Shown here piece after piece: positions 62,482-63,080 of a stretch of 64,000 nucleotides of DNA (position 1 is the stretch's first letter; each line of letters starts with the position of its first letter). A program made the translations under genes and the position numbers. A model generated the notes under the pieces. That model made no database searches, was not told the DNA's origin, and saw nothing but the letters and a program-made list of their open reading frames with translations. Origin of the DNA: Moniliella sp. 'wahieum' (lineage: Eukaryota); assembly GCA_003971905.1 (NCBI GenBank), contig RSEE01000010.1, positions 930,001 to 994,000 of the forward strand, read 5' to 3'.

Positions 62482-62972
62482 TGTGGTGGCCATCGTAGAT
62501 CGGACGGGATGCAGCAACTTTTTCACATTTCTATGGCTGCTGGTGGTGCTAACCGGTTGAGAAGCGAGACATAATGGGGGTATGCATTGGTCAGTGGGGG
62601 GGGGGGGGGCACAGTCCCGTGCGGGGCTGCAGGGGACATTAAACAAGCACGACGGGTGGCCGTCCTGCTCAGTATATATGCACAAGTCAGCATCGGCAGG
62701 GTCAGTACACGCACAAGTCGGAAGAGGGTGAGTATATCCATAAGTCGAAACCTTACAGGGGGGTCACTACCAGAGAGGCAGCAGGGGAAAGAAAGGGGAT
62801 AAACGGAAAATCGTTCATTTCCACTCTTTTTTTCCGTGTCAATTGGTCGTATGGTTCAGTAGGGTTGGTTTTCAGGCGCGCAAAGCCCCCCCTCTCTCCA
62901 AAGAGAGAGGGGGGATATTCGAAGGGGACGATTGTGCTACTTGACACAGAACCGCGATGGAATTCCACCACA
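62482..62972. mobile_element. TG..CA-bounded element with inverted termini abutting the LSU rRNA break (LTR- or MITE-like)
   Basis: TGTGGTGG at 62482-62489 and its reverse complement CCACCACA at 62965-62972, each with an internal CCATCG nearby. No target-site duplication found. Confidence 0.35.
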
Positions 62973-63024
62973 TAGGACAATGGGAGTCTCGTTAATCCAT
63001 TCATGCGCGTCACGAATTAAATGA

Positions 63025-63080
<56 letters not shown>

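Follow-up and report, generated by a model that had tools for sequence, protein, structure and literature searches.

The locus raises the question of why a large-subunit rRNA gene (LSU, 28S) breaks off inside the target site of the R1 retrotransposons, and whether the DNA beyond the break belongs to a mobile element or marks an edge of the rDNA array. The window, i.e., the whole stretch of 64,000 nucleotides that was analysed, corresponds to C10:930001–994000, and contig C10 terminates in rDNA 8.7 kb beyond it. Window positions are given on the plus strand, while the rRNA lies on the minus strand; unit coordinates are those of a single intact rDNA repeat of 10.1 kb on contig C193 (SSU 100–1925, 5.8S 2014–2166, LSU 2293–5605, 5S 6119–6236). 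Read on the minus strand, the LSU of the window (62970..64000, 99–100% identical to the array units) runs through TTAAGG/TAGCC ... GAGACTCCCATTGTCCTATGT and then departs from rRNA, whereas an intact unit elsewhere in this genome goes on at the junction point with TGTCCCTATCTACTACG. The terminal unit, truncated at 62970, extends past the window (5.8S, SSU, IGS, and 5S) to the contig end. Its R2 insertion site (63037..63038, minus strand; unit 4532) is recognizable by the motif AAGG/TAGC and is uninserted, the cut position lying between 63038 and 63037; the motif was taken from a preliminary description of the locus and serves solely as a ruler. The last rRNA bases (62970..62979, minus strand) are a decayed form of the 11-nt target TGTCCCTATCT, which occupies unit 4592–4602, i.e., +60 to +70/71. 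The last rRNA-derived base, 62970, thus lies 70–71 nt past the R2 site. The preliminary description had placed the junction at ~68 nt, which is ~3 nt short, but was right that it falls in the R1 window; it was also right that the LSU breaks off at the R1 target and that the rest of the gene is missing beyond it, since a comparison over 9.7 kb of window flank found no LSU downstream of the junction.

The junction is not peculiar to the window. The 673 nt past it have at least 47 matches in the genome (40 of the 41 candidates scored), the longer of which are 64–79% identical. Forty-one border stretches of 10 kb were compared, comprising the window and 40 stretches around flank matches and LSU matches, and the same junction occurs in 33 of them, the window counted. 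The LSU ends at unit 4602 in 16 of these copies and at 4596–4605 in all 33; the window's own variant is common to C103. Two further copies, on C64 and C175, bring the total to 35, and none is farther than 24.6 kb from the end of its contig (three positions are approximate). At these 35 contig ends the junction forms the inner edge of the rDNA. A shortened flank with no LSU ahead of it occurs in C2, C53, C29, C94, and C50, and a second, partial flank copy in C89, all near contig ends; none of the 10 places with an intact LSU continuation carries the junction block. The distribution of the copies is restricted to rDNA. If breaks struck a 10.1-kb unit at random, simple arithmetic gives a chance of ~0.3% for one no more than 15 nt from position 4592. 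In other organisms, we found no exact matches to the junction in metagenome contigs and no look-alike genome windows. The lysyl-tRNA synthetase of the window has its best named matches in Malassezia and other fungi (~65%); on sequence grounds the host is a divergent fungus, as had been assumed. Elsewhere in the window, three tRNA genes are longer than the standard model (5616–5710, 10273–10362, and 14637–14736) and probably contain introns.

The DNA after the junction had been described as foreign, yet most of it matches the organism's own rDNA unit. A profile built from 33 flanks gave four matches to this unit, namely the site itself, LSU 3136–3161, the 3′ terminus of the LSU together with the hairpin there, and the 5S gene, and all flank pieces are in rRNA sense. 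In the window (minus strand throughout), the junction leads into a filler (62947..62971), a copy of LSU 3136–3161 in rRNA sense (family profile, nhmmer E 0.0058) whose overlap with the junction is a 2-nt CT microhomology. Here 20 of 23 bases, counted by eye, match the LSU; in C211, 26 nt match at 96%. The filler is followed by a diverged LSU 3′ end (62915..62946, unit ~5574–5605), weak in this copy and recognized by profile and pairwise alignments, and by a 12-bp C/T:G/A hairpin (62887..62914), which fold and alignment place at the site of the 3′ ETS hairpin after an intact LSU; the family profile matches the LSU 3′ end plus hairpin at unit 5588–5628 (E 0.0017). Beyond the hairpin lies a diverged IGS1-like spacer of weak homology (62545..62886), identified by its position between hairpin and 5S and by local alignments. 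In 31 of 33 copies, the 3′ portion of the LSU and IGS1 (unit 5606–6118) gave local alignments that exceeded 20 base shuffles, although such shuffling is a weak control in DNA this rich in C. The 5S rRNA pseudogene (62412..62544) is oriented as in the intact unit and is supported by alignment and by the family profile (unit 6106–6254, E 3.6e-29), the window copy itself falling below the Rfam thresholds. The diverged start of IGS2 (62140..62411, boundaries approximate; profile y1, unit 6143–6512, E 8.9e-15) passes into module Y (61621..62139), seen solely at rDNA borders, and then into more border sequence (58300..61620), 64–84% identical to many contig ends and 89% to C47, in which a search for coding matches gave none. 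Farther inward, at 54934–56690 and ~6–8 kb from the rDNA edge, lie frameshifted, apparently intronless pieces of the ribosomal protein genes L15 and L5, in a region 89% identical to C47; they are possibly retrocopies or assembly errors.

Judged by this composition, the block is a terminal rDNA unit minus ~970 nt of 28S, with a filler of 24–26 nt at the joint; the size of the loss follows from the cut at +70/71 and the resumption at the 28S 3′ end. Substitutions per site amount to 0.0004–0.004 far upstream, 0.024 at 4583–4591, and 0.080 at 4592–4602, and the junction flanks are only 73% alike in the median (range 42–100%). This gradient and the divergence of the flanks suggest the edge of homogenization at an old, fixed boundary, and the one composite filler joint together with the common downstream modules indicates descent from a single event with later spread as DNA. 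The junction block thus reads as a relic of an old event that was copied between chromosome ends as DNA, and not as a mobile element. The hairpin is present in all 32 distinct copies and coincides with the highest 20-column conservation past the junction (0.94 vs. 0.56–0.91). In the covariation analysis 94.6% of its cells pair, but values as high as those observed also arose in 43 to 166 of 500 shuffles, so this indicates conservation only. Selection for transcript processing is a possible cause of its retention, and self-correction of the palindrome is an alternative. Just past the hairpin, a telomere-like AACCCTA motif (window 62858–62864) occurs in most copies and in the intact unit; a role in protein binding or as a terminator is a guess.

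The block has a second end. In 16 aligned places the order past IGS2 is Y, LSU 4592–4660, and W, where W is a zinc-knuckle retrotransposon 5′ end related to the element E1 described below (E 2.8e-18). The LSU past this right-hand junction ends after ~69 nt, at ~4660, in all 16. Five of these places are truncated-type borders, and the other 11 represent a second border type, in which Y follows an unbroken 28S 3′ end, IGS1, and 5S wherever the contig is long enough. Three of the truncated-type borders, C33, C73, and C21 (3 of 35 copies), carry both junctions on one contig, spaced by 1314, 1403, and 1479 nt and bracketed by 4592–4602. In the window the right-hand junction is missing: Y breaks off at 61621, ~70 nt before its usual end, and neither the LSU piece nor the 5′ end of the following element is present. 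Module Y has 29 genomic matches, and those examined are rDNA borders. Two identities tried for it were rejected, i.e., a decayed RLE coding end (3.6 bits at best vs. 4.8 in shuffled controls) and decayed 28S upstream sequence (the Y profiles gave no LSU match); its tail is unlike the tails of E1 and E2, so no 3′ end of an autonomous partner was recognized there. In a tree of Y/28S/W, the borders with intact 28S fall on one side of a branch (100/99), and in this outgroup-free tree the relative age of the two border types is not given. In C14, C69, and C12 (L078, L096, and L101), an inverted 1.6-kb internal piece of E1 lies inside W (95–96%), and at these borders Y is attached within the 5S gene (unit 6199).

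Retrotransposons of two kinds accompany these borders. E2 comprises decayed elements with an RT and a restriction-like endonuclease (RLE), stacked deeper in the borders. An E2-type end followed by decayed 28S occurs at 15 places on 11 contigs, a set selected via a search for the 28S fragment, with E2 ends lacking the fragment falling outside the count. The 28S begins at 4592–4596 at all 15, and a profile of these 3′ ends with their flanks aligns to the unit from 4592 to 4651 only (E 4.8e-11). Dead CRE-type copies thus end at 28S +60, with 60–69 nt of 28S between copies, and four contigs carry two E2 junctions in tandem each. The 15 junctions may trace to one or two ancestral stacks rather than to independent events. 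A decayed RLE was detected in E2 (at C24, one of the 15 places, the RLE part is lost), and the RLE and RT of E2 match those of E1 at 28–77%. The preliminary description had offered, as one reading, an edge of the array defined by a mobile element; this is borne out by the 35 contig ends and by the 15 neighbouring places at which dead CRE-type elements terminate on the R1 nick position, except that the elements involved are of the RLE/CRE type and not of the R1 type.

E1 is young: its 4.0-kb copies are 98–99% alike and were found in C33 (L089:799–4814), C2, C158, C30, C24, and C69. In C33 and C2, which possibly derive from the same reads, the LSU runs to 5297, is followed by the element, and starts again from ~5068, so that ~230 nt of 28S are repeated on either side; C158 holds E1 in tandem. 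Eight of the 10 E1 3′ ends examined lie at LSU 5042–5068, and two are outside rDNA, where a short 28S-like tail is retained. Variants of the 28S track the 5′ junctions of E1, and the long 28S duplications may have been carried in part by the element RNA. The RT of E1 (RVT_1, E 3.3e-10) finds its best matches among fungal RTs (~40% identical, E to 1e-65), with relatives in Cryptococcus neoformans, Tilletia, Kwoniella, and Filobasidium; the records call them "hypothetical," and we infer that they are Cnl1-type. R2 structures barely match it (E 0.16). The E1 endonuclease has the motif C-X2-C-X8-H-X3-C-X9-RH, which is the CRE/MoTeR pattern, and a C-terminal CCHC is present. Judged by RT matches and this motif rather than by a tree with named references, E1 and E2 fit the CRE clade. 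The E1 reading frame is broken at differing points in three translated copies, which is expected from the indels of the assembly (~0.5% in rDNA). The first 70 nt of E1 were considered as a relic of an older target and rejected: they are in register with W, but the resemblance is weak (1 of 162 LSU windows scores as high), and nhmmer found nothing in them.

Outside this genome, none of the best 80 of 161 metagenome relatives of E1 has a convincing LSU flank; 11 carry telomere-like repeats and two adjoin 5S rRNA; Rfam on 20 of the relatives gave no matches. The two 5S-adjoining relatives (L164:166–216 on the 5′ side, 5S 1–51; L169:3877–3940 on the 3′ side, 5S 42–104) overlap by 10 nt within the 5S, and these flanks possibly reflect a 5S-targeting CRE family. 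Within the genome, a second, dispersed RT-RLE family (L124–L135 and ~100 further places) matches the E1 endonuclease at ~35%; no rDNA flank was found at the 12 loci checked.

The arrangement of the contig ends is uniform in one respect: outside the pure rDNA contig, all 16 SSU starts point inward. C135, C37, and C39 carry a single truncated unit after non-rDNA end sequence, and C175, which begins with telomere-like repeats, retains LSU 4486–4605 alone. In C112 and C129, end sequence is joined to the LSU at 5068–5069, which is the 3′ junction of E1; these outer breaks suggest that element cut sites set rDNA edges. Since C135 and C39 are 100% identical over 9.6 kb, some ends may be non-independent; the flanks of C41 and C89 are identical as well. 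The ends of C135, C37, and C39 (L224, L225, and L226) have in common ~9.4 kb of sequence with internal 1-kb repeats, joined directly to IGS1 a short way ahead of the 5S, and no RT match to E1 was found in it.

Taken together, these observations lead us to explain the junction as the scar of CRE-type cleavage, left by one old lesion in the innermost terminal rDNA unit, with a probability of roughly 0.55. A Cnl1/MoTeR-like element with an RT and a restriction-like endonuclease would have targeted the 28S site that insect R1 uses; its enzyme would have nicked at +60 and ~+71, insertion would have failed, and repair would have left the 24–26 nt filler and the ~970-nt deletion. The whole border would then have been copied to dozens of ends via subtelomeric DNA exchange. 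The sequence upstream of the junction may still be homogenized with the array, while that downstream would no longer be and has decayed. E1 would be a member of this lineage that moved into another 28S site in recent times. Besides the dead ends at +60, the 16 further places where LSU 4592–4660 precedes an E1-related zinc-knuckle 5′ end belong to the picture. On the other side, no RT or endonuclease sequence was found adjoining the junction itself; Y, which adjoins 4592, gives no RLE coding signal above shuffled controls, and the right-hand repeat shares a contig with the left junction in 3 of 35 copies and is absent in the window. Three parts of the scheme are ones we infer: the break at +71 by the old enzyme, given that CRE 5′ junctions are seen at ~4651–4660 and not at 4602; the RNA-carried duplications; and the subtelomeric spread. 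Overall, the findings suggest that this fungus has had CRE retrotransposons directed at 28S, which once used the R1 site.

The bracketing of the C33, C73, and C21 blocks by 4592–4602 on both sides would also be expected if the 1.3–1.5 kb block were a single non-autonomous retrocopy with a true 11-bp target duplication that spread later as DNA. CRE machinery would have primed at +60 on a read-through transcript (Y, IGS2, 5S, IGS1, and the 28S 3′ end), switched template to a different piece of rRNA, and joined at +71. Every piece is indeed in rRNA sense, and precedents exist in the available parts of the literature, for template jumps to other RNAs and for an R1-site SIDE that contains ITS-1 sequence (PMC3414825), and for 11-bp R1 duplications (PMC2718515). 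However, this course requires extra steps, intact 28S follows no copy, and at 11 borders the series Y, 4592–4660, and W is preceded by 28S whose 3′ end is intact, by IGS, and by 5S, but has no such junction beside it. The right-hand "repeat" can thus occur where the left one is lacking; we consider a retrocopy unlikely. Another course would be an ordinary repair deletion with templated filler, independent of any element, the R1 site being hit by chance or through fragility. End joining also leaves filler with 2-nt microhomology, the junction itself holds no element sequence, and one ancestral event demands one coincidence only. Against it, the breakpoint lies no more than 11 nt from where CRE copies end in the same borders, and the outer breaks of C129 and C112 coincide with the 3′ junction of the young element (5068–5069). 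We regard such a deletion as unlikely, a shade less plausible than the retrocopy.

In its strong form, the possibility raised originally is that a mobile R1-like element has inserted in many rDNA units and that its 5′ end begins past the junction. This would account for the exact position, the 35 places, and the rDNA-restricted distribution. Yet that DNA is rDNA-derived, its copies have diverged (median 73%), every copy is terminal, and the 10 places with intact downstream LSU lack the block. There is one composite junction in one downstream context, and neither Pfam on the seven ORFs of 58070–62169 nor tblastn of the E1 domains against the window detected an RT or endonuclease. A site-specific parasite at the junction itself is very improbable on this evidence. 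The particular candidates fare no better: for an R1 element, the block has no ORFs for an endonuclease or RT and no copy in otherwise intact rDNA units; for an R2/R1 SIDE, there is no HDV-like ribozyme, Rfam hits with E ≤ 1 over 62000–64000 being LSU only and the fold giving simple hairpins; for a group I intron, Rfam gave no match and the LSU exon does not resume. As for an assembly artefact or chimeric read, the assembly is error-prone, two pairs of ends are identical in sequence (C135/C39 and C41/C89), and the junction is in no public run, none containing half of the junction words (best share 0.16, and shares this small carry no weight as evidence). The worry about a single chimera is nevertheless answered by the 35 contig ends with at least 32 distinct flank sequences, whose graded decay toward the junction makes a chimera impossible as the source, and we give an artefact practically no credence.

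A more far-reaching version of the preferred cleavage-scar explanation may be sketched, although we hold it to be speculative and rather doubtful. A fungal CRE lineage would have come to target 28S independently of the animal R elements, using the exact R1 nick first and then the second site, and its cuts would have set both rDNA edges at most ends. The truncated units, which comprise the promoter region, 18S, 5.8S, and the 3′ hairpin without the 3′ third of 28S, would be transcribed and kept as small-subunit-only rRNA genes. If a fungal CRE lineage did use the R1 nick, two different classes of endonuclease would have converged on one 28S bond. R1 itself has an APE endonuclease and two ORFs. 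The junction block has no ORF, and the +60 elements described here are of the RLE/CRE type in a fungal host. They resemble the arthropod R1 elements (R1Bm and Drosophila R1A/R1B) in having the 3′ junction at +60 and target sequence between tandem copies, but differ in the 60–69 nt of 28S between copies. According to the available part of PMC2718515, R1 3′ junctions all lie 60 bp past the R2 site, R1 duplications are 14 bp long (11 or 13 in D. ananassae), and R1 tandem arrays have target sequence between copies.

Among fungal elements, Cnl1 of Cryptococcus, MoTeR of Pyricularia, and FoTeR of Fusarium are the nearest comparison, given the RT relatives of E1 and its endonuclease motif (PMC12857005, available part). 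The fungal CRE elements described in the accessible portions of PMC12857005 and PMC7175516 target telomeres, whereas here two 28S sites are involved, with duplications of 60–69 nt and ~230 nt. Elements that target 28S are named in animals only in the consulted parts of PMC4640811, PMC12503042, and PMC13586686, and the literature searched, mostly outside subscription journals and Repbase, contained no report of a fungal CRE element that targets 28S. E1 is a new candidate for a site-specific RLE enzyme with a 28S target and probably the better lead for follow-up.

The block itself is reminiscent of the Drosophila R2/R1 SIDEs, which are short, carry no coding sequence, and sit at the R1 site; one of them contains rDNA spacer (PMC3414825, in part). 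SIDEs combine an R2 ribozyme with an R1 3′ end and are mobile in intact units, while here no ribozyme match was obtained and all copies represent one border. Finally, the explanation by an old cleavage scar would account for an unusual plan of chromosome ends, in which an rDNA unit cut at the same point faces inward at dozens of ends. In the available parts of the respective reports, Encephalitozoon cuniculi (PMC4704409) and HAATI-rDNA fission yeast (PMC5959237) likewise have rDNA at many ends with fixed polarity. In HAATI, however, it is the spacer that holds the junctions, and transcription runs toward the end, whereas in the present fungus the junction lies inside 28S and transcription is directed inward.
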